Assembly: GCA_017518295.1 (NCBI GenBank)
Contig: JAFWVJ010000012.1
Span: forward strand, 338,010-402,009
Reading direction: 5' to 3'
Origin: Clostridia bacterium
Lineage (GTDB): Bacteria > Bacillota > Clostridia > TANB77 > UBA1234
Length of the DNA stretch: 64,000 nt
Shown here piece after piece: positions 13,081 to 60,594 of this stretch (its first letter is position 1; each line of letters begins with the position of its first letter). The position numbers and the translations under genes were made by a program. Below the pieces are notes generated by a model. That model ran no database searches. It saw only the letters and a list, made by a program, of their open reading frames with translations, and was not told the origin of the DNA.

Positions 13081-13127
13081 CGTATCGGCGACCATCGAAC
13101 ATCGTATCGGCGGTCATCGACCGCCAT
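13081..13127. repeat. GC-rich palindromic intergenic repeat (REP-like), 1.5 units
   Basis: cgtatcggcgaccatcgaacatcgtatcggcggtcatcgaccgccat. Confidence 0.7.
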
Positions 13128-13225
13128 TTATAATTGTACAAATAATTATTTTGTATTTATTGTATTGACTCATACTCATTTTATGATATAATTATATCAA
13201 TATAATATCAAAAGGAGAGATTTTT

Positions 13226-13519
13226 ATGATAATTAAAGCTTCTGCAAGTTTAAGAAATAAATATGGTGAGATTTCAAAACTAGCTCATAAGACCAATGAG
13301 CCTATTTTTATTACCAAAAATGGCGAAGGTGATCTTGTGCTAATGTCTATTGAAAAGTATGAGAGGTTGATGTCTGAAATTAAATTAATTCCTCATTTAG
13401 TAAGATCAGAAATAGATATCGAAAATGGTAACTATATTACTTATGAAGATTTCAAAAAAGAATTAAACGAAGAATATGAAGATAAAGTTGCCGAGGATGA
13501 TGAAAAATATGAAGTATAA
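13226..13519 (+). CDS. Phd/YefM-family type II antitoxin
   Basis: IFITKNGEGDLVLMSIEKYERL; overlaps start of RelE/ParE-like gene. Confidence 0.75.
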   Translation: MIIKASASLRNKYGEISKLAHKTNEPIFITKNGEGDLVLMSIEKYERLMSEIKLIPHLVRSEIDIENGNYITYEDFKKELNEEYEDKVAEDDEKYEV

Positions 13520-13802
13520 TGTTATCTTATCTAACTATGCTAAAGATAGTATTAAATCTTCTATTGATTATTATAAAACCATTAGTAACAAATATTCAGA
13601 TAGAATTTTAAACTCTGTTCAAAAATGCATAGAAAGAATATCTGAATTTCCAATGATTTATAGAACATTTGATACTAACCCTATTTATAGGCAAGCTGTT
13701 ATTTTAAAAAAATTCGTATTAATATATACAATTAATAATGATAGTATAATAATACATTATTTTTTGGAAGGTACTAATGACTTTGCACCTTTAATAAAAT
13801 AA
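13510..13802 (+). CDS. RelE/ParE-family type II toxin
   Basis: MKYNVILSNYAKDSI...RQAVILKKFVLIYTINNDSIIIHYFLEG; probable start ATG 13510 rather than ORF-track 13476. Confidence 0.7.
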
Positions 13803-13834
13803 AAAAGTGGCGATTACTCGCCACTTATTTTTTG
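13803..13834 (+). terminator. rho-independent terminator (bidirectional)
   Basis: aagtggcgattactcgccactt hairpin plus tttttt. Confidence 0.6.
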
Positions 13835-14329
13835 TCTTCTATTTTTTATCTTATAACCTATTAAATAAATTATTGCTGCTATGCATCCTCCAAATGTATC
13901 AATTAAACAATCGATTGCTAGTCCGCTTCTTCCTGGTACAAAAGTCTGATGAAGTTCATCAGTTATGCTATATAGTAAGCAAATTACTAGTGCAATCAAA
14001 ATTGCCTTTCCTATTTTCATATTCCATGTATGCTTACTTCTTAATGCTAAGATTAGTATAAATGTAAGTATCATATACTCACTCATGTGAGCAATCTTTC
14101 TTATTATTTGATTTACTCTAAATGCTTTATTCGCAAATAGCTTCTTATTTAATTCATCTGTTGCTTTATCTCTTGATCTCATTCCTGTTGCTGTTTCTAC
14201 TATCTTATCTGCCAAGCCTTGGCTTTGTCCGTCGGACTTATCTCCTTGTGTATTTGAAAATGCAAAGATTATCCCCATCCATAAAAGTATTATTAATATG
14301 TATATTATCTTTCTATTCAAGTTTATCAT
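13814..14329 (-). CDS. VanZ-family membrane protein
   Basis: DELHQTFVPGRSGLAIDCLIDTFG; ORF-track start 14359 is extended into a REP element (MATIGRRYEG), likelier start MINLNRK at 14329. Confidence 0.65.
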   Translation of the reverse strand: MINLNRKIIYILIILLWMGIIFAFSNTQGDKSDGQSQGLADKIVETATGMRSRDKATDELNKKLFANKAFRVNQIIRKIAHMSEYMILTFILILALRSKHTWNMKIGKAILIALVICLLYSITDELHQTFVPGRSGLAIDCLIDTFGGCIAAIIYLIGYKIKNRRQKISGE

Positions 14330-14334
14330 CCCTT

Positions 14335-14363
14335 CGTACCGGCGACCAATGGTCGCCACTACG
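14335..14363. repeat. GC-rich palindromic intergenic repeat (REP-like)
   Basis: cgtaccggcgaccaatggtcgccactacg. Confidence 0.7.
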
Positions 14364-14364
14364 A

Positions 14365-15165
14365 TTATAACATTCTTTCTAATATTGGGAAAGTTTTAAA
14401 AAACTTAACGATCATCTTGTCTCTATTTAGATGCTCTTTTTTAGCTCCTTCATTCATATCTATCTTGATATCTGCTAAAGCTCTGCAAGGATTAGTTTTT
14501 GTTAGTAGTTTAAATTTATCTTCGCCTACTAAATTTTTTAAGATATCAAATCCTTTTCTAGCTTTATAGTATCCTGCAACTGAATGTGCATCACTAGCCA
14601 CAAAACTTACTAAGTCTTTTTCCAAAAGTTCTTTTGTAAATGATTCAACTTCTTCACCATATTGACCAGTTAATGAGTTTGCATTCACTTGTAGCAAAGC
14701 ACCCCTTTTAACTAGCTTTATAAGCTCTTGCTTATTTGTTCTAAATCTTTCATATCTTTCTGGATAAGCAAGAACTGGAACTTTACCCATAGATACCATA
14801 CTATCTACAAGTTCTTCCAAATATGTGATTTCATCATCTTTTGTGAAAGTAAGCAAAACATATCTTGTGTCATTTAAACTTATTACATTATGCATTTTGT
14901 CTGGCATGTTTGGAAAAATTGATACTTCTTCACCCAAGTACAAATGCATATTGATTTTGTTCTTTGTAAGTTCGTTTTTGATTTTTAAGATCTTTTCTAA
15001 AAGTTCTTTTCTTGTTAGTACATTACTCTCATTATTGTAGTGAGGCGTGAAACATATAGCTTCAAACCCAACTGACTTAGCCATCTTGATCATCTTTATA
15101 GATTGCTCCAAAGACCTTGAACCATTGTCCACATCAAATATGGCATGACTATGAATGTCTATCAT
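14365..15165 (-). CDS. cpsB: CpsB/YwqE-type Mn-dependent protein-tyrosine phosphatase (PHP domain), capsule regulation
   Basis: MIDIHSHAIFDVDNGSRSLEQS signature; SD aaggag before ATG 15165. Confidence 0.8.
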   Translation of the reverse strand: MIDIHSHAIFDVDNGSRSLEQSIKMIKMAKSVGFEAICFTPHYNNESNVLTRKELLEKILKIKNELTKNKINMHLYLGEEVSIFPNMPDKMHNVISLNDTRYVLLTFTKDDEITYLEELVDSMVSMGKVPVLAYPERYERFRTNKQELIKLVKRGALLQVNANSLTGQYGEEVESFTKELLEKDLVSFVASDAHSVAGYYKARKGFDILKNLVGEDKFKLLTKTNPCRALADIKIDMNEGAKKEHLNRDKMIVKFFKTFPILERML

Positions 15166-15391
15166 ATATAATCTCCTTTGCTCTTGTCCCAAAAGTGCTG
15201 AAAAATCAGACTTTTTATTTAGAAATGGCTTAAAATAGCCATTCGCGGCAAGGCTTAATCATTATATTACTTTTAAAAAATAAATGCAAGTTTTTAAATA
15301 ATTTGTAACAAAAATGTGCGAACTTTAGTTCTGTATGATTCATAAACAAAAACCTCAAGTGCCTTAATATTGGCATTTGAGGTTTTTATTT

Positions 15392-15916: not shown

Positions 15917-15935
15917 TTGGCTTCACAGCTCCCTT

Positions 15936-16011
15936 CGTATTGGCGACCAATGGTCGCCGGTACCAACAATCATCGATCACGTGTTTTGTATCGGCGGTCA
16001 TTGACCGCCAC
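15936..16011. repeat. GC-rich palindromic intergenic repeats (REP-like, two units)
   Basis: cgtattggcgaccaatggtcgccgg ... gtatcggcggtcattgaccgccac. Confidence 0.7.
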
Positions 16012-16090
16012 AAAAATAAAAGAATTTCATCTGAATATTTATATCATAGTTTATGTTAACATGCAACAATTTTTTCTTAGCATTAAAAAT

Positions 16091-16136
16091 GGCGACCATT
16101 GGTCGCCGGTACCGGCGATCATAGATCGCCATTATG
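16091..16136. repeat. GC-rich palindromic intergenic repeats (REP-like, two units)
   Basis: ggcgaccattggtcgccggtaccggcgatcatagatcgccat. Confidence 0.7.
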
Positions 16137-16575: not shown

Positions 16576-16592
16576 GTTTGCTCCTTATTTTT

Positions 16593-17231
16593 TTATATCT
16601 CGACATCTTCTTTTTTAATATCTCTTTGTAGTTCAAATATGACACTTGGTAATGGAACTGTTTTATTGTTCACAACTTTACCACCACATCTTTGATAAAA
16701 GCCTAATGCTTGTTCGCGCACATCACGTGCTTCTAATTTATCTATATCTAGAGTTTTTAAGTAATCCATTGTTACATTTAATACTTTTTCGCCTAAGTGC
16801 ATTCCTCTATGTTTATCATCTACTAGTATCGCAACATCATTACTTAATGTCAAATAATTATTATCTTTTATATCTAAAGGAAATTCTTCATTTAGCATCA
16901 TATTCTTTAATCTTTCTTGTGTACAAAGCACAGCACTTCTATTTTGATTGTATAACATTACTTCCGAAAATCCTATTATAGTATTTTCTTCTGCTAGTAT
17001 AAAACTCGTTATTCTATCTGGTGCATCTTTAAAAGGTTTTTCACTCGGTGCAAAATCTTTTTCTATATAAAACATTCTCAAATTTTCATTTGGAAGTTCC
17101 ACAATAGCTTGTTTCCAACCTTTTAAATCTGTACTTGGTGATTTAATATGAGCATTTTCATCTATGACTTCTTGATTAACTTTTTTAGATTTAACTCTAC
17201 TTAATAAGTCTCTAATATCTTTTAATCTCAT
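16593..17231 (-). CDS. GNAT-family N-acetyltransferase
   Basis: ILVDDKHRGMHLGEKVLNVTMDYLK...ALGFYQRCGG; ORF-track N-terminus (to 17354) runs through a REP element, likelier start MRLKDIR at 17231 with SD gggagg. Confidence 0.65.
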   Translation of the reverse strand: MRLKDIRDLLSRVKSKKVNQEVIDENAHIKSPSTDLKGWKQAIVELPNENLRMFYIEKDFAPSEKPFKDAPDRITSFILAEENTIIGFSEVMLYNQNRSAVLCTQERLKNMMLNEEFPLDIKDNNYLTLSNDVAILVDDKHRGMHLGEKVLNVTMDYLKTLDIDKLEARDVREQALGFYQRCGGKVVNNKTVPLPSVIFELQRDIKKEDVEI

Positions 17232-17247
17232 ATAAATCACCTCCCAT

Positions 17248-17301
17248 TCGTACCGGCGACCATTGCTCGCCGCTACGTATCGGCGGTCATCGACCGCCAT
17301 C
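17248..17301. repeat. GC-rich palindromic intergenic repeats (REP-like, two units)
   Basis: cgtaccggcgaccattgctcgccgctacgtatcggcggtcatcgaccgccat. Confidence 0.7.
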
Positions 17302-17377
17302 ACAATTATATTATACCATACAATTATGTTAATGACAAAAAAATCCGAGGGCACTTGCCCTCGGTTTTCCTCCTTTT

Positions 17378-18290: not shown

Positions 18291-18387
18291 GGCGAGCAAT
18301 GCTCGCCGATACGAAATTTGGCGAGCATTGCTCGCCTGTACGGAATTGAATTAAGCATCGTACCGGCGGTCAATGACCGCCACTACG
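18291..18387. repeat. GC-rich palindromic intergenic repeats (REP-like, three units)
   Basis: ggcgagcaatgctcgcc x2 plus cgtaccggcggtcaatgaccgccactacg. Confidence 0.7.
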
Positions 18388-18414
18388 AAAATCTAAAAGA
18401 AAGGAAGTGAATAC

Positions 18415-20106: not shown

Positions 20107-20111
20107 ATGAT

Positions 20112-20157
20112 GGCGAGCAATGCTCGCCGTTACGTAGCGGCGGTCATCGACCGCCAT
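20112..20157. repeat. GC-rich palindromic intergenic repeats (REP-like, two units)
   Basis: ggcgagcaatgctcgccgttacgtagcggcggtcatcgaccgccat. Confidence 0.7.
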
Positions 20158-20162
20158 AAAAA

Positions 20163-20192
20163 AACACGCCTTAATAAGGCGTGCTTTTTATT
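20163..20192 (+). terminator. rho-independent terminator (bidirectional)
   Basis: acacgccttaataaggcgtg hairpin plus ttttt. Confidence 0.55.
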
Positions 20193-21579: not shown

Positions 21580-22684
21580 TCAATTGATATTTGCTCTTAA
21601 AAAGCTATCCATAAAATCGTTAATTTCGCCATCCATTACAGCCTGAACGTTTCCAACCTCATAATTAGTACGATGGTCTTTAACTAATGTATATGGGCAA
21701 AATACGTAGCTTCGTATTTGGCTACCCCATGCAATTTCTCTTTGGACACCTTTTAAATCTTCTATCCTTTCTTTATTTTCGCGTTCTTTTAATTCTATAA
21801 GCTTAGAAATAAGCATTTTCATGGCATATTCTCTATTTTGAATCTGAGACCTTTGAGTTTGGCAACTAACAATAATATTAGTAGGAATATGTGTAATTCT
21901 AATAGCAGATTCGGTCTTATTAACGTGTTGTCCGCCTGCGCCAGAGCTTCTATAAGTATCTACTTTTAGGTCTTCTGGATTAATCTCAACATGCACGCTA
22001 TCATCTATTTCGGGAATAACTTCTACGCTAGCAAAAGAAGTATGTCTTCTTCCTCCACTATCAAATGGTGAAATTCTAACTAGTCTATGAACTCCACTTT
22101 CACATTTCATATATCCATAAGCATATGTGCCAATAATTCTAAAAGTCACACTTTTGATACCAGCAACGTCACCATCTAAGTAATCGATTTCTTCTAATTT
22201 AAAACCATTTTTCTCAGCCCACATATTATACATTCTATAAAGCATTTGTGCCCAATCTTGTGATTCAGTGCCACCAGCACCAGGATGAATAGTCACAATT
22301 GCATTATTTTTGTCGTGAGGACCACTTAGTAAATTTTCTGTCTCTAATTTATCTACGCCTTTACTTAGCTTTTTAAATGAGCTTTGTATCTCATGAATTA
22401 AACTTTCATCATTTTCTTCATTAGCAAGTTCTATCATAGCATCTAAATCTTCTGCATCAGAAAATAAACTATTATAGTTAGTTACCTTATCTTTTAAAAG
22501 CTTAATTTCTTGAAGTACTTTACTGCTATTTTCTTGATCGTTCCAAAAGCTAGCATCATTAGTTTGAGCTTCTAGTTCTTTTAACCTAGTCTCTTTAGAA
22601 GCAATGTCAAAGAGACTCACCCATTTCTGTAATTCTTTCCTTCAAAGACTTTAGCTTAGGAGCTAGTTCTTCTAATTCAAGCAT
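21580..22684 (-). CDS. prfB: peptide chain release factor 2 with programmed +1 ribosomal frameshift
   Basis: GGQ motif SGAGGQHVNKTESAIRITHIPT, SPF motif SPFDSGGRRHTSF; frame-0 MLELEELAPKLKSLKERITEMGESL then CTT TGA C at ~22606-22612 shifting into main frame. Confidence 0.85.
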
Positions 22685-22708
22685 TCATCTCACATCCTTT
22701 TTTCAATT

Positions 22709-22737
22709 CGTAACGGCGACCAAAAGGTCGCCGCCAT
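22709..22737. repeat. GC-rich palindromic intergenic repeat (REP-like)
   Basis: cgtaacggcgaccaaaaggtcgccgccat. Confidence 0.65.
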
Positions 22738-24093: not shown

Positions 24094-24162
24094 GGCGACC
24101 AAAGGTCGCATTTCGTATCGGCGAGCATTGCTCGCCATGGCAATCGATGATCGCCGCTACGA
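24094..24162. repeat. GC-rich palindromic intergenic repeats (REP-like, three units)
   Basis: ggcgaccaaaggtcgc...cgtatcggcgagcattgctcgccatggcaatcgatgatcgccgctacg. Confidence 0.7.
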
Positions 24163-24606: not shown

Positions 24607-24638
24607 AAGCACCTCCTGTTGGACAGCAATGCTATCCA

Positions 24639-26630
24639 TTACTTTTCATTGTCTTCTTCGCTTTGCTTAATTGCATCTAATAGTAAATCTCTTGCTTTTT
24701 CCATATTTGCATCATAAACTTGTGCGCCAGCTACTGTTTGATGTCCGCCACCGCCTAGTTTTTCTAATACTACTTGTACGTTCATGCTTCCATTTGATCT
24801 ACCACTTATATTTATATACTCTCCTGTATTTACAAGTACAAAAGATGTCTCAATTCCGTTTAATGATATTAGTTCATCAGCTGCTTGAGCTGCAATTTGC
24901 ATTCCATTTGTAATTTCTGGTGGGCAAAATGCTATAGCTACATCACTACGAACTTTTTCTGCTGTTCTAATAATATCTGCTACTGCTACATAAGTATCTA
25001 TATCGTTATCGAATAACTTCTTAACAGCAAATACATCTACGCCAAGTCTCTTTAAGAAAGCCGCTGCTTCAAAAGTTCTTACACCAGTCTTAAATGTGAA
25101 ATTCTTTGTATCGGTTAATATTCCAGCATATAAAGCCTCTGCCTCTACCAAAGGAATATCCATCTTTGCATCAATATATTGCATAATCTCTGTTACTAAT
25201 TCGCAAGCAGATGATGCATATACTTCGTGGAATGTAAGAGTTGGATCTTGAATAAAATCTGCACTTCTTCTATGGTGATCTATCAAAACAACTTTATTAG
25301 TTTTTTCAAGAATCTCTGGTGCTTCTACATAATCGTTTCTGTGAGTATCTGTTACTACCAAAAGTGTATCTGGAGAAATTATTTTTAGCATTTCTTCAGT
25401 AGAAACAAATACATCATCATATGCTTTATCTTTATTTAGTCTTTTAACTAAACCATCTAAAGCAATTCCTTTGCCATTAAATAATATATAAGCATCTTTT
25501 CCTAATGATTTAGCTATTCTATATATACCAAGTGCAGAGCCTAAGCAGTCAGCATCAGGATTTCTATGTCCTATAATACATACATTTTTACTTTCTGTGA
25601 TTAACTCTTGTAAAGCTCCTGCTATAACTCTTGATTTTACTTTTGTTCTCTTTTCTATTTCTTTTGACTTACCGCCAAAGAATTCATACTTAGCATCTCT
25701 TTTGATAATTGCTTGGTCACCACCACGACCAAGAGCAATGTCTAGTGTAGCAAATGCGTTATGCAATTTTTCTGCTTTAGTAGCATTATCTATTACTAAA
25801 GCGATACTTAATGTAATAGGCATATTGTTACTAAATGTGGTTGTTTTGATGCTATCTAATATATCAAACTTATTATCTACAAATTGTTTTAAGTACTTGT
25901 AATCAAAAGATATTAAAAACTTGTTTCTATCTAATTTTACAAACATACCACCTGTGAATGAAAACCATTCTCTAAGTCTTGTTTCAATTGCAGCAATTAG
26001 TTGAGCTTTTTCACTATCTTGTGAACCTTGGATTACTTCATCATAGTTATCTACTAAAATTAATCCAACTACATCTTGTTCATCTTCATATGCTTGATAT
26101 AGTTCATAGAAATCATCTCTATCTATAAAATAAAGCATTAAGCTTTTTTCAGAATATCCACGTTTTCTAATATTAACCATATTGCCAAGTAGTGAATAAT
26201 GTTTGCCATGAATAGTCACATTTCTATTAATACCTGTAAATGAGTCATCAAAATTTTCATTTAATTCTTTTAGTAAGCTTTCAATATATTTCTCCTTATT
26301 AACCCCTTTGAAAATTTCGTCGACACCATTATTATTCCAAAGTATTTCTCCTTGCTCATTTAGAATAAGCGCAGGAAGTGGAAAATCAAGTATTGATTCA
26401 TCTGTATTTAGTTTAACCATGAAGCTGTTTAAGTTACGAATAATTCTCTCAATTGCACTCTTTCTTTTTCTATAAGTAATGTACAAAATAAAGAAATATA
26501 CAAATACAGCACTAATAATTGTGATTGGATGTGGCTTAATCACACATATAGTCACAAGCATAAGTAAAGTTATCAATAAATAGAATCTGTATTTTGAAAC
26601 AAACACTTCACTAAATTTAACTTTTTTCAT
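24639..26630 (-). CDS. gdpP: membrane-anchored DHH/DHHA1 phosphoesterase, c-di-AMP phosphodiesterase GdpP-like
   Basis: 2 N-terminal TM, central degenerate GGDEF-like region, DHH-family core CIIGHRNPDADCLGS...DTHRND, DHHA1 tail GGGHQTVAGAQ; conserved position upstream of rplI-dnaB. Confidence 0.75.
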   Translation of the reverse strand: MKKVKFSEVFVSKYRFYLLITLLMLVTICVIKPHPITIISAVFVYFFILYITYRKRKSAIERIIRNLNSFMVKLNTDESILDFPLPALILNEQGEILWNNNGVDEIFKGVNKEKYIESLLKELNENFDDSFTGINRNVTIHGKHYSLLGNMVNIRKRGYSEKSLMLYFIDRDDFYELYQAYEDEQDVVGLILVDNYDEVIQGSQDSEKAQLIAAIETRLREWFSFTGGMFVKLDRNKFLISFDYKYLKQFVDNKFDILDSIKTTTFSNNMPITLSIALVIDNATKAEKLHNAFATLDIALGRGGDQAIIKRDAKYEFFGGKSKEIEKRTKVKSRVIAGALQELITESKNVCIIGHRNPDADCLGSALGIYRIAKSLGKDAYILFNGKGIALDGLVKRLNKDKAYDDVFVSTEEMLKIISPDTLLVVTDTHRNDYVEAPEILEKTNKVVLIDHHRRSADFIQDPTLTFHEVYASSACELVTEIMQYIDAKMDIPLVEAEALYAGILTDTKNFTFKTGVRTFEAAAFLKRLGVDVFAVKKLFDNDIDTYVAVADIIRTAEKVRSDVAIAFCPPEITNGMQIAAQAADELISLNGIETSFVLVNTGEYINISGRSNGSMNVQVVLEKLGGGGHQTVAGAQVYDANMEKARDLLLDAIKQSEEDNEK

Positions 26631-34889: not shown

Positions 34890-34927
34890 TCCCGAATCCC
34901 TCGTGTGCTACACGGGGGATTTTTTTG
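34890..34927 (+). terminator. rho-independent terminator
   Basis: atccctcgtgtgctacacgggggat hairpin plus ttttttt. Confidence 0.5.
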
Positions 34928-35028
34928 AGACTTGGGGACGTTCCCCAGAAGTCTCACGCACGAAATTTCAAACTTGAAAGTGAGACTTGGAGGGAATGTC
35001 CCCAAGTCTCAGTGTTCGCCGCTACGAA
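34927..35028. repeat. two copies of a ~27-bp perfect palindrome (gagacttggggacgttccccaagtctc-type) plus REP-family tail ...cgccgctacg
   Basis: copies at 34927-34955 and 34981-35012; third copy at 41676-41702. Confidence 0.65.
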
Positions 35029-41089: not shown

Positions 41090-41638
41090 TTAACCTTCTA
41101 AAAATTCACATACTTTTTTAAATACATTATCTCCTCTATTAATTTTAATTGCATACATACCAGCTTTGATTGCACCATCAACATTTTCTTGATTATCATC
41201 TACAAACAAAAACTCTTCTGGTTTTAATTTATAATATTTTATTATTTCTCTATAGAAGTTTAAATGAGGTTTTACTTTATTCATTTTTGCTGAAACGAAT
41301 ATCTTATCTATATGCTTTATATCTAATGTTTCTTTAATATGTTTTTCAATATATGAAATATGATTTGTGCCAATAGCAAATATAATATCGGGATATTTTT
41401 TATTAAGTCTAGAAAATAAGTCTTTATCTTTTATCTCATATAATATATCTATTATATTTTTTGCAGTTTTTAAAGCCTTTGCAGAGTTTGGTTCTATCTT
41501 GTTAACTTGTTTTGCATATTTTTCGTCACTATAATTTTTGCCAAAGAATCTTTCTAACTTATCTTCTACATCAGTTAACTCAATATCCTTTTCTCTAACT
41601 AAAACACCACCATAATCAAAAACAATAACTTTAATCAT
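41090..41638 (-). CDS. HAD-superfamily hydrolase
   Basis: MIKVIVFDYGGVL DxD motif; SD aaaggag before ATG 41638; ORF-track N-terminal extension runs through repeat. Confidence 0.7.
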   Translation of the reverse strand: MIKVIVFDYGGVLVREKDIELTDVEDKLERFFGKNYSDEKYAKQVNKIEPNSAKALKTAKNIIDILYEIKDKDLFSRLNKKYPDIIFAIGTNHISYIEKHIKETLDIKHIDKIFVSAKMNKVKPHLNFYREIIKYYKLKPEEFLFVDDNQENVDGAIKAGMYAIKINRGDNVFKKVCEFLEG

Positions 41639-41650: not shown

Positions 41651-41702
41651 TGTACCGGCGGTCATCGACTGCCATGAGACTTGGGGACGTTCCCCAAGTC
41701 TC
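41651..41702. repeat. REP-like unit fused to 27-bp perfect palindrome
   Basis: gtaccggcggtcatcgactgccat + gagacttggggacgttccccaagtctc. Confidence 0.7.
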
Positions 41703-43071
41703 ATTTTGAAATTGCAACTTCGATTGCTTCTCTTATAGTTCTAACGCCTGTTACTTTAATATTAGGTTTATACTTGATTTGTTTTAAAGCACTTTGTGGA
41801 ACTATAATTTCTTCAAATCCCATTCTCTCAGCTTCTTTAACTCTTTTTTCTAATTGACTAACCGATCTTATTTCGCCAGTTAATCCGACTTCTCCGACAG
41901 CAACCAAATTTTTACTAATCGGCATATTTTTATAGCTTGATGCAAGCGAAAGAGCAATAGCTAAATCTGCAGCAGGTTCATCTAATTTAATACCTGATAC
42001 TACATTTACATATGCATCTTGATTGCTAAGAGGTAAGTTTGCTCTTTTTTCTAAAACAGCAAGTAATAAAACTAATCTATTAAATTCAACTCCTATTCCT
42101 GTTCTACGAGCCATACCATAAGCAGTAGGAGTAACTAATGCTTGAACTTCAATTAGCATAGTACGAGTGCCTTCTAAAGTTGCGACTATTACAGATCCTG
42201 AAGGATTACCAGCACGATCAGATATCATTATATCCGAAGGATCACTTATCTCGCACATACCTTCTTCACGCATTTCAAAAATTCCAACTTCATTTGTTGA
42301 ACCAAATCTATTTTTTGCTCCTCTTAAAACTCTATAAGAGAAAAATCTTTCACCTTCAATATATAAAACAGCATCAACCATATGTTCCAAAACTCTAGGG
42401 CCAGCAATACTACCGTCTTTTGTAACGTGACCAATTATGATTGTAGTGATGTTTTGCTTTTTGCAAGTCATCATTATTTTGGCAGTTACTTCTCTTACTT
42501 GTGAAACACTTCCAGGAGCTGCTGGAATATCATCACTATAGATTGTTTGAATTGAGTCGATGATTACTAAACCAGGCTTAATATTTTCAATCGCTTCATC
42601 TATAAGACTCATCGACGTTTCACCTAAGAAGAAAATACTATCATTATCAATGTTCAATCTATCGGCACGCATTTTTATTTGTGAGCCAGATTCTTCTCCT
42701 GATACATATAAAATAGGACCATTAACTTTGACTTTATCGCAAATTTGCAAAATTAAAGTAGACTTACCAATACCAGGTTCACCGCCTAATAGAACAAGCG
42801 AACCTTGTACCAAACCACCGCCTAAAACTCTATCTAATTCATCATAACCAGTTTTGTATCTTTCATAATTATTTGTTTCTACATCTTTAAGCTTAAGTAT
42901 ATTTGCTTTAGTCGCAGTAGTTCTTGCTCCTAGACCAGAGGTTACTTTTGAATCTGCTACCTTTTGTTCAAAAAATGAATTCCACTCTCCACACGCTGGA
43001 CACTTACCTAGCCACTTAGTGCTTTCATTTCCACAATTATTACATACAAAAATTACCTTACTTTTAGCCAT
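41701..43071 (-). CDS. radA: DNA repair protein RadA/Sms
   Basis: zinc finger CNNCGNESTKWLGKCPACGEW; Walker A GEPGIGKSTL; KNRFG motif; Lon-like C-terminus. Confidence 0.9.
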   Translation of the reverse strand: MAKSKVIFVCNNCGNESTKWLGKCPACGEWNSFFEQKVADSKVTSGLGARTTATKANILKLKDVETNNYERYKTGYDELDRVLGGGLVQGSLVLLGGEPGIGKSTLILQICDKVKVNGPILYVSGEESGSQIKMRADRLNIDNDSIFFLGETSMSLIDEAIENIKPGLVIIDSIQTIYSDDIPAAPGSVSQVREVTAKIMMTCKKQNITTIIIGHVTKDGSIAGPRVLEHMVDAVLYIEGERFFSYRVLRGAKNRFGSTNEVGIFEMREEGMCEISDPSDIMISDRAGNPSGSVIVATLEGTRTMLIEVQALVTPTAYGMARRTGIGVEFNRLVLLLAVLEKRANLPLSNQDAYVNVVSGIKLDEPAADLAIALSLASSYKNMPISKNLVAVGEVGLTGEIRSVSQLEKRVKEAERMGFEEIIVPQSALKQIKYKPNIKVTGVRTIREAIEVAISK

Positions 43072-51812: not shown

Positions 51813-51895
51813 AGTGGCAACCTTTAGGTCGCCACTACTGTTTCGTATCGGTGAGCATCGCTCAACATATGGCGACCGGTGGTCGCCGCTACAGC
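51813..51895. repeat. GC-rich palindromic intergenic repeats (REP-like, three units)
   Basis: agtggcaacctttaggtcgccact ... cgtatcggtgagcatcgctcaacat atggcgaccggtggtcgccgctacag. Confidence 0.7.
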
Positions 51896-53199: not shown

Positions 53200-56100
53200 C
53201 TAAGATATCACTATCTTCAAAAATTTTAGCACGTCTTTAAGTGTATCACTTTCAGTTTTTGATTGCAACTTTAAAGTTACTACAGGCGCATTATGGCCTG
53301 AAAAGAATATCTTACTCTTAAAATTGTCTATCAAAATCTGCACTTTTTCGTCAGTAAATATACTATTATCCAAAAACGTAAATACTACTTTATCGTCATT
53401 TTGCATCATCTTGGTAACACCAAGTTTTCTAGCATAAGTCTTTATTCGAGCAATCTCTAATAAATTAAACATCTCTGGTGGCATTTCGCCATATCTATCG
53501 ATTAATTCATCACAAACTTCACTAATTTGCTCTTCTTCGGTGATATTTGCTATATCTTGATAAGCTTCTATCTTTTGGCTATTTATGCTTATATATTCAT
53601 CAGGTATATATGCAGATACTTTTAAATCGATAATAATTTCAAATGGTTTATCAACATCAATGCCTTGTAATTCTTTAACCGCTTCTTCTAAAAGCTGTGT
53701 ATACATCTCATAACCAACTTGTGCCATATGACCTGATTGCTCCGGTCCTAAAATATTTCCAGCACCTCTTATTTCTAAATCACGAAGAGCTATCTTAAAT
53801 CCAGAACCAAACTCAGTAAACTCTTTAATTGCTTTTAGTCTCTTTTCGCTTACTTCAGACAAAACTTTATTCTTTCTATATGTGATATAAGCATATGCAG
53901 TTCTATCTGACCTTCCAACTCTTCCTCTTATTTGATAAAGTTGTGCTAAGCCCAATCTATCTGCATCTTCTATTATCATAGTATTTGCATTTGGTATATC
54001 AATACCAGATTCCATAATAGTTGTACATATTAATACATCGATATTCTTAAGAGCAAAGTCTTCCATGATATTTTCTATTTCTTTACCACTCATCTTACCA
54101 TGAGCAAATGCAACTCTTGCTTCTGGTACTAGTCTACTTATCTCTTGAGCTTTTGCTTCGATATTTTCAACCTTATTATATAGATAAAATACTTGTCCTT
54201 CTCTTTCTAGTTCTTTTATAATTGCTTCTTTAATAACATCGATATCATATTCTAATACATATGTTTGAATTGGCTTTCTATTTTGTGGTGGATCATAAAT
54301 AACACTCATATCTCTTATTCCTACAATACTCATATGAAGTGTTCTAGGAATTGGTGTAGCAGTCATGGTTAATACATCTACATTATTTTTAAGTTCTTTT
54401 ATCTTTTCTTTGTGAGCTACTCCAAAACGATGCTCTTCATCTATTATTAATAAACCTAAATCTTTAAAAGTAACATCATTACTTAATATTCTATGAGTTC
54501 CTATTAATATATCTATACTTCCGGTTTTAAGCTTCTTAACAATATCATTTTTTTGCTTTGTTGTTTTAAATCTATTTAATACTGATACTTCTATAGGATA
54601 ATCTTTCATTCTTTCTTTAAAAGTTTCATATTGTTGCTGTGCAAGTACTGTAGTTGGACAAAGATAAGCAACTTGCTTTCCATCCATTACTGCTTTAAAA
54701 GCTGCTCTTAAAGATACTTCTGTCTTACCATAACCTACATCGCCACATAAAAGTCTATCCATAGGTCTTTCAGATTCCATGTCTTTTTTAACTTCAGCTA
54801 TACATCTTAATTGATCATCTGTTTCTTCAAATGGAAAACTTTCTTCAAAATCATTTTGCCAAACTGTATCTTCACTAAACTTATAACCTACTTGTTTACT
54901 TCTTTTGGCATATAGTTCAATTAAGCCTTTTGCAATATCTCTTAAGCTTTGTTTTACTCTAGATTTAGTCTTTTCAAAATCTTTGCTTCCGAAGTCTATT
55001 TAGCTTTGGCTTACTATCTTCGCCACCGCCCATGTATTTACGTATACAGTCTAATTGGTTAGTTGGTACATATAATACATCTTCATCTTTATATTCAATT
55101 TTTAAATAGTCTTTTCTAATATTATCTATTACTAAAGTATGTATTCCTATATACTTTCCTATACCATGTGATTGATGTACTACGTAGTCTCCTGGTTTTA
55201 AATCAGCAAATACAACTTTACTTCCTTCTTGGAATGCTTTTGTTTTATAAGATTTTTTCTTTTCTTTGATTACATTATTTTCTTCACCAGCTACAATGCA
55301 AAGATTTATATCTTCTAGCATATATCCCGAACTTAAATTACCTTGCATTATCATAACTGGTACTTCTAAAGCATTCGGGTTTTCAATTGCTTCTTCAAAT
55401 AATTTAGTATCGTTATTCTCTAATATAGCAGTATTTATCTTATGCTCCAAAAACATCGTAGCAAGTGATCTACACTTTGATATAACTCCTCCTAAGATTA
55501 AGAGTTTGTTTCCTCTTTCTCGTGATTCTTGAATTTCCTGAAGGAATATATCCAAGCTGCCACGAAAAAAGTTCACCTCCCTACAGTTAAAACTGTATCC
55601 GTTTCTTTTTGCAAGCATATTTTCATCTATTCTAAATAGATTTATTGCATTAATTTCTTCTAAATTAATTGCAACTTCACTAAATGAAGACATTTGGTTT
55701 GTATAACTAGGAACTACTCCATGTTTTTCTAAATAGTCTTCAATTATTTCTTTGTTCTCATATTCTATTGATTGAGCTTTTGATTTTATTCTAACTGGTT
55801 CATCTACAAATATTGCTACATCTTTTGGAAAGAAATCTAAAATTAAAGAAGTCTTATCAAAGAAAAACTCAAAATACTTTTCTATTTTGCTTTGATAATT
55901 TCCACTTCTAATTTCTTCTATATCTTCTAGTATTTCTGGATATCTATCAAGTACATGATTCTTTTTAGCATTATAAGTATCATAAATCTTATCTGCAATT
56001 TCTCCTAAATTGTTTTTATCTACTAAGAATTCTTCAACAGGAAAAATTGAAATACTATTTAATGCACTAATTGATCTTTGAGAAATAGCATCAAATGTAC

Positions 56101-56710
56101 GAATTGAATCTATTTCATCTCCCCAAAATTCAATTCTTATTGGATTTTTTTCTGTAATAGGATATACATCTATTATTCCTCCACGCACTGAAAAAAGACC
56201 TTTACCATCGCAAAGGTCGGCGCGTTCAAATCCAATATTTATTAACTGTTCTTTTATTTTTTCTAGGCCATATTCTTTTCCTACTTCTATATGAAGCACA
56301 TTTTCAAATAGCTTTTGCTTATTTATTGTTTTTTGCATCAATGCTTCTATAGTTGTAAGTATTATTCCATTTTGAGAATTATATAAATCCGAAAAGCATT
56401 TTAGTCTTTCCATAGTCACATCTTTATTCATTGTGTCTATGTCATAATATACTATTTCTCTTTTTGGAAAAACTTGTACAGTTTCATCTTCAAAAAACTC
56501 CAAGTCTTTTTGCATCTTTTTAAGTTCTATTTCATTATATGTTAGAACTATTACTGGCTTTTTTGAATAGAATCTTGTTGCATATATAAAATGTGCTTTT
56601 GCTGATTCAGATAACCCAGAGATGTTTATTGGAAAATTACTTTTATTTACATCTTCGATATAATCTTGAAACTTCTTTAATTTTGGAAGAAGTTTTGCTA
56701 ATTGCTCCAT
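53200..56710 (-). pseudogene. mfd: transcription-repair coupling factor Mfd, split by a +1 frameshift near 54988-54994
   Basis: N-part (54974-56710) and C-part (53200-54780, MESERPMDRLLCGDVGYGKTEV) are contiguous Mfd; removing one nt restores ...KLNRLGSKDFEKTKSRVKQSLRDIA... Confidence 0.8.
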
Positions 56711-57012: not shown

Positions 57013-57050
57013 CAATAAAAAAGCCCCCAACTTTAAGTTGAGGGACTTTT
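57013..57050 (-). terminator. rho-independent terminator
   Basis: agcccccaactttaagttgagggact hairpin plus T-run on minus strand. Confidence 0.5.
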
Positions 57051-57053
57051 ATT

Positions 57054-57860
57054 TTACTCGGCCGGAACAAAATATTTGGTCCGAACCCATCCATAGACTT
57101 GCTGACCATTTTCTTTGACGTACAGCACATAGGCAAATTCGCCATCATTTTGGATTACTGTGACAATGTCTCCAGAATGTATGATAGCAAGTTTTTTGGT
57201 CTCAAGATCAGGTTGCTCTCGAATACCTACAGATACCCCATCGTGGTCATACATAACCATCCACCTAGTTCCATAGGTTCCAGGAGAAGTTATATAGCCA
57301 TTACCACCTTCAAACCTGAAATTTTCGCCAAACTGTACCGCACCGTTATAGTCGTACATGCCTACATCAACTTTTTTGACGAAACAGGTGCCAGGGATAC
57401 GTTTCTCGGTATTAAGCTGACATACAAGCCATTCGTTTGTCTCATAGATAACAAACAATGTCTCTCCAGCACTTACCTTTTGACCATTTGTATGCCCTGA
57501 CCATGGATCAGTGTAGACATTCAGGCTTCCACTTGCTATTTGGATTCTGTAGCCATTAAGCACACAAAATGATTTAAGTACATAACCTGTTTGAGGTTCT
57601 GCACTCAATCCACTTTGATAGCAGTCAACTACATACCAATCATAGTATTCACCAGTAATGTAAAGTTCATCCATGTTATTACACTTGTAGAGCCTAGTAG
57701 AACGAGTATCGGGCTGTTCACGAACGCTTACTGTGGTGGAAATGACTGTTGCAGTACCATACCACTGAGTATAAGCATCCGAAAGAGTAGAGTTAATAGG
57801 GAAAAGAACCAAAAGCATGCTTAACAGGATATACGAGATGTACCGTTTCATTTTTTTCAC
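57054..57860 (-). CDS. secreted hypothetical protein (signal peptide; Trp/Tyr/Gly-rich, SH3b-like repeats possible); GC-rich codon usage
   Basis: signal peptide MKKMKRYISYILLSMLLVLFPINSTLSDA; composition GC-richer than flanks. Confidence 0.5.
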   Translation of the reverse strand: MKKMKRYISYILLSMLLVLFPINSTLSDAYTQWYGTATVISTTVSVREQPDTRSTRLYKCNNMDELYITGEYYDWYVVDCYQSGLSAEPQTGYVLKSFCVLNGYRIQIASGSLNVYTDPWSGHTNGQKVSAGETLFVIYETNEWLVCQLNTEKRIPGTCFVKKVDVGMYDYNGAVQFGENFRFEGGNGYITSPGTYGTRWMVMYDHDGVSVGIREQPDLETKKLAIIHSGDIVTVIQNDGEFAYVLYVKENGQQVYGWVRTKYFVPAE

Positions 57861-58008
57861 TCCTTTTAAATATTTATAGTGTAGGAATCGGTGAAATTTT
57901 GGTTACCACTGCTATTTTATCAAAAAATAAGTTATTTTTCAAGTATTATGTCAACTTTTATGTATTATTTAAGCTCCGGCTATGTGTTTTCACCACCGGA
58001 GCTTACTA

Positions 58009-58677
58009 TTATTGCTCATTTAATATTAGCTTTTTTCTATGAATATTATAATCATCTAGCTCTTCTTCTGGTACTACACTTTTTATTACTTGTACCACAT
58101 AATTTGGATTTAAGTTATTTTTGCTTCCTGCCAAACAATGAACTTTTACAATTATTGTATTGTAGTTTAAATCCACAACTTGCAAATCAATTATTAATGG
58201 CTTAATGTCGATTTCTTCTTCCTTACCATTTTTAGCTTGTTTAGTAACTAATACTTGCTCTTTATTAAATGCTTCATTTAGTTTAGCAACTATTTCTTCA
58301 TTATTGTTAGTTGATACTAAAATTGATATTTCATAATTCGCTTCTGTAACTAACGACATTAATCCTTTTGCTTTTTCTAATTTTTCACATGTTAATACTT
58401 TAAATCCATCTGGAAAGTTTTTATTTAGTTCGTCGATAACTTCTTGGCATTCAACATCTCCATTTAATTCCAAATCAAAATATTCACATTCAGAAGTTAC
58501 TCCAACTGCAAGCGGAAGTGCAAATGCTAATTGAACTCTTGGATTGAAGCCACTAGAAAACTTAATTGGTAAATTCGTTTTCTTTATGCATCTTGTAAAA
58601 GTACGCATTGTATCTAAGTGTCCAATATACTTAACTTCATCTCTTTTTTCAAATTTCATTCTATATATCATACACAT
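58009..58677 (-). CDS. TIGR03936-family radical-SAM-linked protein (DUF2344)
   Basis: size, position overlapping 3' end of TIGR03960-type rSAM gene, KYIGHLDTMRTF N-terminus. Confidence 0.6.
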   Translation of the reverse strand: MCMIYRMKFEKRDEVKYIGHLDTMRTFTRCIKKTNLPIKFSSGFNPRVQLAFALPLAVGVTSECEYFDLELNGDVECQEVIDELNKNFPDGFKVLTCEKLEKAKGLMSLVTEANYEISILVSTNNNEEIVAKLNEAFNKEQVLVTKQAKNGKEEEIDIKPLIIDLQVVDLNYNTIIVKVHCLAGSKNNLNPNYVVQVIKSVVPEEELDDYNIHRKKLILNEQ

Positions 58678-60551
58678 ACTCCTTTCGTTTCAAAGCATAC
58701 TCCGCATCCAAATTTAGCTGCTCCACATCCTGCACATTTTGCTCTACAATTTGGTGTTACTTTTTCTGCCATTGCATTATTAAATTCTTTTTTAAAGAAT
58801 TCTTTTGATACCATTATATTTATATGTTCCCATGGAAGTATTTCTTCTAATGGTATTTCTCTTCTTGAATAAAAGAATGGATCTATATTGCAATCTTTAA
58901 ATGCTTGCATCCATTTATCATAATCAAAAAATTCTCCCCACGCATCAAAGTTGCATCCTAATTCATGTGCTCTTAATAGAACTTTGTTTAATTTTCTATC
59001 TCCTTTTGCAAGCACAGCTTCTAACGTAGATGTCTTACTATCATGCCAATTATATTTGATTGCTCTATTTGTTAAATTTGTTTTTAAGAATTCTTGCTTT
59101 TTATTTATTGTCTCTACATCATCTTGCTTGCACCACTGAAATGGTGTAAATGGTTTTGGTACAAATGTAGACGTACTAACTGTTACAATCAATCCTTTTG
59201 TTCTTTCTTGTTTTGGTATAGAATAATATACTTCAACTATTTTATTTGCTAAATCTACTATTCCTTGAAGATCATCGTACGTCTCTGTTGGTAATCCAAT
59301 CATGAAATACAATTTAACATTATTCCATCCGCTTCTAAAAGCTAGTTCGCAACCTTTTAATATATCTTCTTCTGTTATTCCTTTATTTATAACATCTCTT
59401 AATCTTTGAGTACCTGCTTCTGGTGCAAATGTCAATCCAGATTTTCTTACATTATTAACTTCATCTAAAAGTTTTAAACTTACAGAATCTATTCTTAAAG
59501 AAGGTAGTGATAAATTTACATTCTTTGGTTTAAATTCACAAATTAAATCATCTGCTAATTTAAAAAATCCTCTGTAATCAGAAGTTGAAAGTGATGATAA
59601 AGCAAGTTCTTCATATCCCGTATTTTTGATCAAGTTTCTAGCATTTTCTTCTAATACTTCAACTGATTTTTCTCTTACCGGTCTATATAAAAATCCTGCT
59701 TGGCAAAATCTACAACCTCTTATACATCCTCTAAAAATTTCTAGCATTGGTCTATCATGAACAACACTCAAATATGGTACCATCCATTTTTCTGGATAAG
59801 TTACTTTATCTAAATCTTTTATTATTCTTTTTGTAACTATTTCTTTTGCATTTTTATTATTTGGTTTTATTTCTTTTATTGTTCCATCTTCGTTATAACT
59901 TACATCATAAAAGCTTGGAACATACACACCTTCTATATTTGCTATTCTTTCTAAAAACTTTATTCTAGGCTCTTTTGCTTCTTTCCATTTAATCCACTCA
60001 TCAGTTACTTCTAAATTTAATTCTTCACCTTCGCCTAAAACAATAAAATCAAAAAAATCAGATATAGGTTCTGAATTATATGAACAAGGTCCACCTGCCA
60101 TTACAAATGGATCATTTTCACCTCTATCTTTTGATAAAAGTGGTACACCACCTAATTCAAGCATATTTATAATATTTGAATAGCTCATTTCATATTGAAG
60201 AGTAAAACCAATCATATCAAATTCATTTAGATTAGTTTTAGTTTCTAATGAGAAAAGCTTAATATTATTTTCTCTCATTAGTTTTTCCATATCTACCCAT
60301 GGTGCAAATGCTCTTTCACAATATGTATCATTTCTTCTATTATATAAATCATATAAGATTCTTAAACCTAAATGCGACATACCAATCTCATATACATCTG
60401 GAAAACAAAAACAATATCTAAATTTAATATCTTTTAAATCTTTTTTGCACATATTTAATTCTTCACCAGTATAACGAATTGGTTTTTCAACTTGCTTTAA
60501 TAATTTATCTATATTCAAAGAGCTTTCCTCCCTACTTGTAGTGGCGGTCAT
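58668..60551 (-). CDS. TIGR03960-family radical SAM protein (N-terminal B12-binding-like domain)
   Basis: FRGCIRGCRFCQAG CxxxCxxC; ~627 aa. Confidence 0.75.
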   Translation of the reverse strand: MTATTSREESSLNIDKLLKQVEKPIRYTGEELNMCKKDLKDIKFRYCFCFPDVYEIGMSHLGLRILYDLYNRRNDTYCERAFAPWVDMEKLMRENNIKLFSLETKTNLNEFDMIGFTLQYEMSYSNIINMLELGGVPLLSKDRGENDPFVMAGGPCSYNSEPISDFFDFIVLGEGEELNLEVTDEWIKWKEAKEPRIKFLERIANIEGVYVPSFYDVSYNEDGTIKEIKPNNKNAKEIVTKRIIKDLDKVTYPEKWMVPYLSVVHDRPMLEIFRGCIRGCRFCQAGFLYRPVREKSVEVLEENARNLIKNTGYEELALSSLSTSDYRGFFKLADDLICEFKPKNVNLSLPSLRIDSVSLKLLDEVNNVRKSGLTFAPEAGTQRLRDVINKGITEEDILKGCELAFRSGWNNVKLYFMIGLPTETYDDLQGIVDLANKIVEVYYSIPKQERTKGLIVTVSTSTFVPKPFTPFQWCKQDDVETINKKQEFLKTNLTNRAIKYNWHDSKTSTLEAVLAKGDRKLNKVLLRAHELGCNFDAWGEFFDYDKWMQAFKDCNIDPFFYSRREIPLEEILPWEHINIMVSKEFFKKEFNNAMAEKVTPNCRAKCAGCGAAKFGCGVCFETKGVCV

Positions 60552-60594
60552 TGACCGCCATTACGAATTATGATGGTCATTGACCGCTGTTACG
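60539..60594. repeat. GC-rich palindromic intergenic repeats (REP-like, two units)
   Basis: gtggcggtcattgaccgccattacg...atggtcattgaccgctgttacgg. Confidence 0.7.

Follow-up and report, generated by a model that had tools for sequence, protein, structure and literature searches.

GTAG-tagged REP-like hairpin repeats in the genome of an AT-rich uncultured Clostridia bacterium

We analysed a 64,000-nucleotide stretch of the genome of an uncultured Clostridia bacterium (assembly GCA_017518295.1, contig JAFWVJ010000012.1, positions 338,010 to 402,009 of the forward strand; the whole stretch is called the window below) and found that it carries a family of small GC-rich hairpin repeats, with a total of ~26 units in 15 intergenic clusters, in DNA that is 30.6% GC. 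The units are probably repetitive extragenic palindromes (REPs) that bear a GTAG-type tag, lie in clusters resembling bacterial interspersed mosaic elements (BIMEs) and, being non-autonomous, would be mobilised by a REP-associated tyrosine transposase (RAYT). An earlier note on this DNA, written from the bare letters, had placed the repeats in a REP/BIME-like class, and that assignment is supported by the GTAG-type tag 5′ of a short GC hairpin, compensatory stems, extragenic placement, alternating clusters, abutment to stop codons, and presence or absence between sister species. The finding extends the known REP/BIME class to a bacterial group where it had been undescribed; it is no new kind of system.

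Results

Number and distribution of the units

The earlier note had named three stem variants, GGCGACC/GGTCGCC, GGCGGTC/GACCGCC and GGCGAGC/GCTCGCC. All three are real: their perfect hairpins add up to 15 in the window (5 + 6 + 4), and none was formed in 100 dinucleotide-preserving shuffles for each variant. The set was, however, incomplete, a fourth variant (GGCGATC/GATCGCC) being found at 16114, 24139 and 15965. Units were located by reading of every locus, by fuzzy search and with a covariance model built from 50 units, which, when run on the window with its filters off, returned ~23-26 units and no good-scoring unit inside genes. About 20 of the 26 keep perfect 7-bp stems and near-identical heads and tails. 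The coding fraction of the window is 88.3%, yet 15 of 15 clusters are intergenic (P ~1e-14 under random placement; gene calls were borrowed from identical metagenomic contigs and, for the last 8.5 kb of the window, rest on Pfam scans). An Rfam scan found no family that fits the repeats, its single hit being a tRNA.

Each of the at least 13 loci listed before is present where it had been placed, and two more clusters, 11599-11626 (degenerate) and 24616-24640 (AT-enriched, still pairing), bring the number to 15 (Table 1). Unit density is uneven, with 21 of the ~26 units lying within 13 kb (11.6-24.6 kb), in agreement with the previously noticed clustering around the gtrA/vanZ/cpsB region. An association with GC-rich cargo genes, suggested at the same time, is weak, as only 2 of ~7 GC-rich genes adjoin a REP. 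The repeats do create artefactual N-terminal extensions, as had been supposed, and mechanical open reading frames (ORFs) cross them, for example VATIGRRYEG... at 13814-14359 and ...RRYVAASNGRRYEW... at 16593-17354. The start called for the HAD gene at 41704 appears to run through a REP, and AAAGGAGCAGATATG followed by MIKVIVFDYGG at 41638 is likely the true start.

The units are not confined to the window; confinement, for example through an assembly artefact, would by the earlier note have refuted its reading. Related units occur in other genomes (see below), and the 9.9 kb to the left of the window hold nine further units in five clusters, none of which was in the training set of the covariance model; overall density is ~35 units in 74 kb (window plus these 9.9 kb). 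Four of the nine left-side units separate a solute-binding-protein gene from its permease gene, lying past the terminator of the former and ahead of the Shine-Dalgarno sequence of the latter. At window coordinate about -5350 (L222, 4541-4570), the entire 26-bp gap between two convergent genes is taken up by AAAAAAGGCGGCCAATGGCCGCCTTTTTTT, a headless REP-type core built as a bidirectional terminator-like hairpin.

Anatomy of the unit

Aligned with the best head turned left, the 50 units give the oriented consensus tt-YGTA(G/Y)Y-GGCG-NN-C-A(T/G)(T/C)-G-NN-CGCC-AT. The basic unit of ~25 nt (range 25-33 bp) consists of a head YGTAGY, a 7-bp GC stem GGCGNNC/GNNCGCC, a 3-nt loop AT(T/C) and a tail AT. 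GTA is present in 43 of the 50 oriented heads, and the fourth tag position is G in 23 units, C in 12, T in 11 and A in 4, under an orientation rule that itself prefers GTAG and biases head counts that way. The loop is ATT, ATC or AGT in 37 of the 50 and the tail AT in 34. The earlier description of the loop as 2-4 nt long holds in part, as it measures 3 nt in nearly all units, 4 nt in two and 2 nt in none. Similarly, the flanks CGTA(T/C)C and (C/T)TACG are conserved, as described, but turn out to be two versions of one head, YGTA(G/Y)Y, seen from opposite strands.

The stem subfamilies arise by compensatory changes. Stem position 5 pairs as AU in 25 units, CG in 13 and GC in 11, and position 6 as AU in 15, CG in 14, UA in 13 and GC in 6. 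Paired cells make up 98.6% of the stem, the covariation score was matched by 0 of 500 shuffles, and 60 cells are changed on both sides versus 17 in shuffles; when the partner is slid by 1-3 columns, pairing falls to 26-45%. Unit selection tolerated two stem mismatches, and pairing at the two variable stem positions was therefore not forced. Folded as RNA, single units reach -13.1 kcal/mol and two-ended units -19.6 kcal/mol, with z between -4 and -5; the corresponding DNA folds give -8.1 and -12.2 kcal/mol, and z over RNA and DNA folds is about -4 to -5.7. Doublets as RNA fold into two separate hairpins.

Single units come either one-headed (head-hairpin-AT) or two-ended (CGTAGT-hairpin-GGTACG, as at 14335-14363 on the - strand). 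In a hand tally of 18 two-ended elements, exactly one end was GTAG in 12, the other end being GTAC, GTAT or GTAA, and in none were both ends GTAG. The complete element is therefore asymmetric, a single strand carrying GTAG 5′ of the hairpin.

The head-to-tail arrangement proposed for adjoining units does not hold. According to the strand calls of the covariance model, some of which are only a few bits apart since the units are near-symmetrical, adjoining units are mostly inverted, with strands alternating at 13101-, 15934/15985, 16083/16106, 17247/17274, 20104/20131, 24112/24131 and 51808/51842/51863. Heads-in junctions share TACGTA and have a period of 27 (17255/17282 and 20112/20139); tails-in junctions share AT and have a period of 19 (24120/24139). 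Linkers are only 2-12 nt long, and no motif for integration host factor (IHF) or other linker motif was recognised in them. The clusters, with their alternating orientation and regular linkers, are thus BIME-like.

Position relative to genes

Insertions end up intergenic and very often on, or directly after, a stop codon. A stop codon is no more than 5 nt away in nine of 19 clusters (window and left 9.9 kb), whereas random placement of each cluster within its own spacer would give 3.1 (P ~5e-5). The TAG stop of rplI, the gene for ribosomal protein L9 (24159-24157), is itself inside a head, CGTAGC (24161-24156, - strand), and the same head register holds the stops of gdpP (GTAAT) and gtrA (CATAAT). 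Beyond the window, a GGDEF protein takes its last eight residues from a unit, a situation that is known for REPs too. Nearness to start codons or Shine-Dalgarno sequences is not significant (10 observed versus 7.0 expected, P = 0.06), and some units precede promoters or occupy spacers of divergent genes (13081; L222, 947-1003). Most units lack the T-run of an intrinsic terminator, and canonical terminators stand apart from them at 17345, 20165 and 60634; T-rich sequence follows only a few units (13109, 16091, 16114 and 24095; L222, 4547).

Of the 10 elements that can be oriented, 9 have GTAG on the sense strand of the gene next to them. The + strand has a GC skew of -0.17 throughout the window and the - strand carries 85% of the genes. 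By this skew the - (sense) strand is the leading-strand sequence, hence the lagging-strand template, and for the sense-strand bias of GTAG replication-strand targeting and RNA-level selection are indistinguishable here.

Gain and loss between species

Contigs identical to the window come from assemblies of ruminant gut metagenomes. Five syntenic loci from relatives were retrieved via DnaB orthologues at 83, 80, 79, 77 and 70% identity, and presence or absence of REPs at orthologous sites differs between the species. The L9-dnaB spacer measures 83 bp and contains three REPs in the window, versus 24-123 bp without a REP in 5 of 5 relatives; in the closest relative (DnaB 83%) this rplI-dnaB spacer is 37 bp long and has no REP. 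The gdpP-rplI spacer has 32 bp and one decayed unit in the window, versus 12 bp and no REP in the closest relative. In contrast, the REP after dnaB is common to the window and the closest relative, where it reads TAATATTAAT-GGCGGCC TAT GGTCGCC-AT (L217, 11335-11367); the same spot has unrelated palindromes in the 77-80% relatives and none in the 70% relative. The covariance model found one match in 94 kb of the five relatives versus ~26 in the window with its 64 kb. REP families show such a pattern, in which the repeats expand in one lineage and an old copy is now and then shared between lineages.

The unrelated palindromes after dnaB (L218, 11333-11663; L219, 11333-11495; L220, 11333-11454) have the form TTGCAAT..GGGGACAGACC..ATTGCAA, with five tandem copies in L218. 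In some of them GGGGACAG is present, a match to the motif GGGGWSAS that has been reported for tyrosine transposases flanked by terminal inverted repeats (TIRs). The spot draws different hairpin repeats in different lineages.

Related units in other genomes

At least eight other AT-rich contigs have related units with the same head, loop and tail and with the stems GGCGCAC, GGCGAAC, GGCGGCC and GGCGATT; one of these contigs belongs to a Clostridia metagenome-assembled genome (MAG) from roe-deer omasum. The same core with GTAC/GTAG ends is present in the Clostridiales MAG RUG340 (59% GC), in contigs of a viral collection (56-66% GC) and in soil contigs (~55% GC). When a contig collection was scanned with CGTAYCGGCGRNCANNGNYCGCC, the matches listed were mostly chance matches in GC-rich genomes, and among them none was informative apart from L076 (an AT-rich Clostridia MAG) and RUG340.

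At least seven contigs of RUG340 (L019, L039, L043, L062, L083, L084, L014) have the core in inverted dimers, CCGTACC-GGCGAGCAGTGCTCGCC-N12-GGCGAGCACTGCTCGCC-GGTACGG, whose outer flanks are conserved, a longer composite element on the same core. The soil contigs (L124-L201) have GTACC-GGCGGTC ATA GACCGCC-GCTAC in several different flanks, often in 3-4 copies per contig (L173, L200), a REP family of unrelated soil organisms that uses the same core. On L154 (12-116) a 37-bp block, TTATAATGTAGC-GGCGACCATTGGTCGCC-AAGGAATA, is found in three exact tandem copies, a local amplification of REP and flanks. Another soil contig, L168 (5.3 kb), with two inverted matches 4 kb apart, was considered as a composite element and rejected, since it is a mirror-image duplication with overlapping nonsense ORFs and most likely an assembly artefact.

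Search for the transposase

Several observations speak against mobilisation of the units by a RAYT. Neither a RAYT nor any other PF01797 gene turned up in the window, the left 9.9 kb or any REP-bearing locus that was fetched, using precomputed Pfam lists, tblastn, a scan for the HUH...YxxxNP motif and two hidden Markov models (HMMs; enterobacterial RayT and the COG1943 family), the window and left 9.9 kb together being roughly 5% or less of the genome. The only hit of the local scans was the Escherichia coli control. For the window itself this agrees with the earlier note, which had seen no RAYT gene there: the Pfam lists are without PF01797 and the motif and HMM scans are negative. A homologue search seeded with E. 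coli RayT returned only Enterobacteriaceae, and a search of the PDB with RayT returned 4ER8 only. The tag, moreover, is the exact GTAG in under half of the oriented heads (22 of 50, with GTAC or GTAT in 18) even under a rule that favours it, and in the window it is GTAG in 7 of 19 and GTAC or GTAT in 9 of 19. Within the species, no transposition event was seen: the comparison of strains proposed in the earlier note showed no polymorphism among metagenomic copies that are 99.98-100% identical, and the differences in presence or absence appeared between sister species. Finally, the PF01797 proteins that are mobile in such genomes (described next) are flanked by hairpins of their own, GGAGACAAGGGGACGGTTCTCTTGTCTCC, and the REP model gives 0 hits there and likewise around their relatives in viral contigs.

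These proteins, P0148 and its relatives, form a 248-aa PF01797 Y1 family that is abundant and mobile in AT-rich rumen Clostridia; they were found with a probe sequence for COG1943 Y1 transposases. Identical copies of P0148 are present in eight genomic contexts (L209-L216), and it behaves like an insertion sequence (IS). Each copy is bracketed by inverted 29-nt hairpins, with a TTGACA/TATAGT promoter-like stretch and stuttered partial hairpins upstream. We considered L173, in which REP pairs surround ~1 kb, as a possible REPtron, but the enclosed ORF encodes a 247-aa hydrophobic membrane protein with no HUH motif.

The window has three hairpins of a second, GAGAC-type family, GAGACTTGGGGAnnnTCCCCAAGTCTC, with a 12-bp stem and a fold of -20.6 kcal/mol (Table 1). 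This hairpin resembles the GGAGACAAGGGGACGGTTCTCTTGTCTCC hairpins flanking P0148 in other AT-rich rumen contigs; an exact search for it in viral contigs found nothing. Of the three copies, two are in direct contact with GGCG REPs, and one seems to cut a REP short. REPs reportedly tend to attract other insertions, which the contact between the two families fits.

Discussion

Proposed mechanism

We propose that the units, being non-autonomous, would spread as folded single-stranded DNA. A RAYT-type Y1 HUH transposase encoded elsewhere in the genome would recognise tag and hairpin, preferably on the lagging-strand template. Complete elements would take one of two forms, head-hairpin-GGTACR or a pair of units linked at the tails by AT, with GTAG at one end only.

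Effects at the RNA level may be inferred as well. A transcribed unit would form a hairpin of -13 to -20 kcal/mol that could shield the 3′ end of the upstream cistron. E. coli REPs within ~15 nt of a stop codon are said to affect translation of the upstream gene, and a hairpin standing within a few nucleotides of the stop could obstruct terminating ribosomes. It could also occasionally serve as a terminator stem.

On a broader and rather speculative reading, the GGCGNNC hairpin with GTAG/GTAC would be one REP superfamily across hosts of 28-66% GC (AT-rich rumen Clostridia of 28-39%, RUG340 of ~59%, rumen-derived contigs of 56-66% and soil contigs of ~55%), travelling horizontally with an undescribed Firmicute RAYT lineage or serviced by hairpin-flanked COG1943 Y1 transposases. 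We hold this to be improbable; if true, it would contrast with the strictly vertical, single-lineage picture of REPINs and their RAYTs, and recognition by the enzyme would be what keeps the GC-rich hairpin against the mutational bias of a 30% GC genome.

Alternative explanations

The same REP-like repeats might be moved by a different single-strand transposase, either an IS200/IS605 TnpA or a hairpin-flanked Y1 enzyme of the COG1943 type, as in palindrome-associated transposable elements (PATEs). In its favour, AT-rich rumen contigs have the 248-aa PF01797 family as an abundant, mobile one, with the identical protein in eight contexts; three window hairpins (GAGACTTGGGGACGTTCCCCAAGTCTC) resemble the hairpin that flanks it, and two of the three abut GGCG REPs; and Y1 genes of subclass 1.1 (IS200-type) are common in Clostridia, the other subclasses being sparsely distributed (PMC6006769). 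The P0148-type genes, however, have hairpins of their own, with nothing for the GGCG REP model nearby, and the GTAG-type tag of the GGCG units marks substrates of RAYTs rather than ends of IS200/IS605 (PMC8266576), which makes this explanation unlikely. We give about the same low weight to a decaying relic, that is, REPs that multiplied in an ancestor or came with a since-lost RAYT and are now immobile, some being kept as harmless or useful hairpins. A relic would account for the failure to find a transposase in the window, the left 9.9 kb and the fetched loci, for the strain copies without polymorphism, and for degenerate or truncated units at 11599, 13087, 15965, 24094, 24616, 35010, 51850 and 60572; one REP is also old, being orthologous with that of a species at only 83% DnaB identity. 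It is harder to reconcile with ~20 of 26 units that have perfect stems and near-identical heads and tails, with two spacers that gained REPs after the split from the closest relative, and with the high density of ~35 units in 74 kb.

Less probable still, and in our judgement very improbable, is that the units are not mobile DNA at all but hairpins evolved by the host and duplicated locally, acting in RNA as punctuation, terminators or stabilisers, or operator sites for a protein. Many copies do stand at gene 3′ ends, one, AAAAAAGGCGGCCAATGGCCGCCTTTTTTT, is built as a bidirectional terminator, and four units lie between the binding-protein and permease genes, a placement similar to that of the malE-malF REPs of E. 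coli. Nevertheless, most units are without a T-run, true terminators stand beside REPs at 17345, 20165 and 60634, other units lie upstream of promoters and in divergent spacers, and sister species are without units at the same operon junctions. Head, loop and tail, although unpaired, stay conserved from one unrelated locus to the next and in genomes whose GC content spans 28-66%, and the free compensatory change in the stem speaks against a sequence-specific duplex operator. Mobilisation by a RAYT is the reading that we consider probable. Two further classes were rejected by their structure: miniature inverted-repeat transposable elements (MITEs), as the units are 25-33 bp rather than 50-400 bp with IS inverted repeats and show no visible flanking direct repeats; and integron attC sites or CRISPR, given the ends CGTAG/GGTACG in place of the RYYYAAC...GTTRRRY core sites of attC, the irregular spacing, the lack of recombinase or cas Pfam entries in the gene tables, and the core genes that are flanked (rplI, dnaB, prfB, radA).

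Comparison with known systems

The repeats are most readily compared with the GTAG REP superfamily (Di Nocera, De Gregorio & Rocco 2013, PMC3733652), whose stems are 6-9 bp and loops 2-3 nt, and whose TAG gives stops to flanking ORFs. Shared features are a tag tetranucleotide at one end, a short GC stem-loop, complementary stem subfamilies, the occurrence as singles, head-to-head or tail-to-tail dimers and groups, an extragenic location mostly after genes, and stop codons supplied by TAG. In contrast to that superfamily, the host here is a low-GC (30.6%) uncultured Clostridia, with a sharp contrast in composition between repeat and genome; the tag is degenerate at its fourth position, not at positions 2-3; one nucleotide separates tag and stem; and a partly complementary GGTAC stands at the far end. 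Only Proteobacteria, Cyanobacteria, Chloroflexi and the group of Planctomycetes, Verrucomicrobia and Chlamydiae (PVC group) are listed as hosts of GTAG repeats (PMC3733652). RAYTs bind GTAG and the hairpin on one strand, and the REPs of group-3 RAYTs are perfect palindromes of 5-8 bp with 3-nt loops (PMC8266576); the closest to ours are such REPs, e.g. that of Stenotrophomonas maltophilia, whose stem has 8 bp and whose loop has 3 nt (PMC8266576). For Clostridia, RAYTs of group 1 only have been noted, and the other REP/RAYT literature checked is silent on Firmicutes.

The E. coli REP/BIME system (REPtron Ec; PDB 4ER8) is similar in that its units alternate and are joined by linkers of short, fixed length, GTAG precedes the hairpin on one strand only, and the units stand in operon spacers and 3′ untranslated regions. 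Its REPs, however, are ~35 nt long with a bulged imperfect stem that RayT needs, whereas stems in the window are perfect, the linkers here contain no recognised IHF or other motif, and no RayT relative was detected in the window or the fetched loci. REPIN-RAYT systems (Bertels & Rainey 2011, PMC3116915; Bertels et al. 2017, PMC5581495) resemble ours in the tails-in doublets (24120/24139; L076, 2399/2418; L154, 2075/2094) and in a lineage-specific distribution that is partly vertical (one orthologous copy). They differ in that the spacer here is 2 nt and the halves usually have different stem variants and so fold as two hairpins, in that many units here are single, and in the defining single-copy RAYT, which was not found in the window, left 9.9 kb or fetched loci. 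TIR-flanked tyrosine transposases (TIRYTs; Di Nocera 2013) and the COG1943 'RayT' PF01797 Y1 genes share with our system the AT-rich rumen Clostridia as hosts (contigs of 32-39% GC) and GC-cored hairpins, three of which are in the window; but the hairpins of COG1943 Y1 genes are GGAGACAAGGGGACGGTTCTCTTGTCTCC, with neither GGCGNNC nor a GTAG tag, and the REP model has no hit around them.

Low-GC Gram-positive bacteria also have other dispersed, intergenic and structure-prone repeats, such as BOX, RUP and SPRITE of Streptococcus pneumoniae and bcr of Bacillus cereus. These are 100-200 bp, modular or MITE-like with terminal inverted repeats, not 25-nt hairpins tagged with GTAG.

Nearly all that is known of REPs and RAYTs comes from Proteobacteria, and the dense, well-preserved GTAG-type family described here widens the host range. 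Annotation gains a concrete model of repeats that lengthen called N-termini falsely, change the 3′ ends of genes and provide rplI with its stop codon. The family also offers a natural setting in which to ask whether REP hairpins that adjoin stop codons tune the expression of operons under Gram-positive RNA decay, which relies on RNase J/Y.

Table 1. Repeat clusters of the window and the adjoining GAGAC-type hairpins
Position	Strand	Units	Location and remarks
11599..11626		Degenerate unit, GGCGACC AAA GGCACCG + GATACG	3 nt past Bac_transf stop; E 0.36, weak alone
13081..13127		Two units: degenerate 13087-13103 and perfect CGTATC-GGCGGTC ATC GACCGCC-AT	Divergent gtrA/phd spacer
14335..14363	-	Single complete element, CGTAGT-GGCGACC ATT GGTCGCC-GGTACG; RNA fold -19.6 kcal/mol	1 nt past cpsB stop; vanZ Shine-Dalgarno AAGGGA follows directly
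15936..16011		Three units: 15942-15958, degenerate 15965-15981, 15993-16009	gtrA-vanZ spacer
16091..16134		Two units, 16091-16107 and 16114-16130, with GGTACC between	gtrA TAA (16132-16134) in head position CATAAT
17249..17300		Heads-in dimer sharing TACGTA: hybrid stem GGCGACC/GCTCGCC 17255-17271, perfect 17282-17298	Between terminator 17345-17364 and Shine-Dalgarno of acetyltransferase gene
18291..18387		Three units, at 18291, 18320 and 18365	cls 5′ leader, right behind TGATATAAT -10-like box
20112..20157		Heads-in dimer, GTTACGTAGC junction	5 nt past cls stop; upstream of bidirectional terminator 20165-20183
22709..22733	+	Single unit, 4-nt loop	5 nt past dnaB stop; closest sister species has REP at orthologous place
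24094..24161		Three units: 24094-24110 and tails-in doublet 24120-24136 / 24139-24155	L9-dnaB spacer
24616..24640	-	Decayed AT-enriched pairing hairpin, GTAAT-GGATAGC ATT GCTGTCC	Between gdpP stop (TAA within head) and L9 Shine-Dalgarno; E 0.018, membership tentative
34927..35010		GAGAC-type hairpin GAGACTTGGGGAnnnTCCCCAAGTCTC, two copies, 34927-34955 and 34982-35010	Adjoins REP, outside REP family
35010..35021	-	REP remnant: head CGTAGC and left arm GGCGAAC	Apparently cut off by GAGAC-type hairpin
41651..41675	+	Single unit, TGTACC-GGCGGTC ATC GACTGCC-AT	Between radA stop and true HAD start (likely); abuts GAGAC-type hairpin
41676..41702		Third GAGAC-type hairpin copy	Directly behind REP 41651-41675
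51814..51893		Three units: 51816-51833 (4-nt loop), degenerate 51850-51866, perfect 51871-51887	Head TGTAGC 1 nt past TAG stop of upstream gene
60538..60594	+	Two units: TGTAGT-GGCGGTC ATT GACCGCC-ATTACG; degenerate 60572-60588 + GTTACG	Between terminator 60634-60654 and Shine-Dalgarno of radical-SAM gene

Neighbouring genes and other features of the window

Near-identical promoter-like stretches are found at 13040-13076 and 17305-17338 (- strand), with TTAACA, 16 nt and TATAAT/TATAGT including a TG; both adjoin REPs and precede paralogous units, gtrA and acetyltransferase/gtrA. A phd/parE toxin-antitoxin pair separates the gtrA-vanZ modules, which are duplicated. At 22621-22700 a short upstream ORF (MLELEELAPKLK...) precedes the 346-aa frame of prfB, the arrangement of a programmed +1 frameshift, and the REP at 22709 is just upstream of the prfB Shine-Dalgarno sequence.

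Several genes have 41-49% GC in this 31% GC genome (38172-39824, 2130-2531, 12494-12973, 17378-18079, 57054-57860 and 62434-62790) and are possibly foreign DNA. The pair with the highest GC, a radical-SAM/SPASM gene (48.9%) and a 54-aa ORF just upstream (47.3%), looks like a peptide-maturase pair. Lastly, mfd (53200-56710, - strand) has a frameshift near 54975 that leaves ORFs of 578 and 526 aa, the 193 bp between them reading as Mfd in the other frame. The frameshift is present in all identical metagenomic copies, and the relative L220 has one 1157-aa gene.

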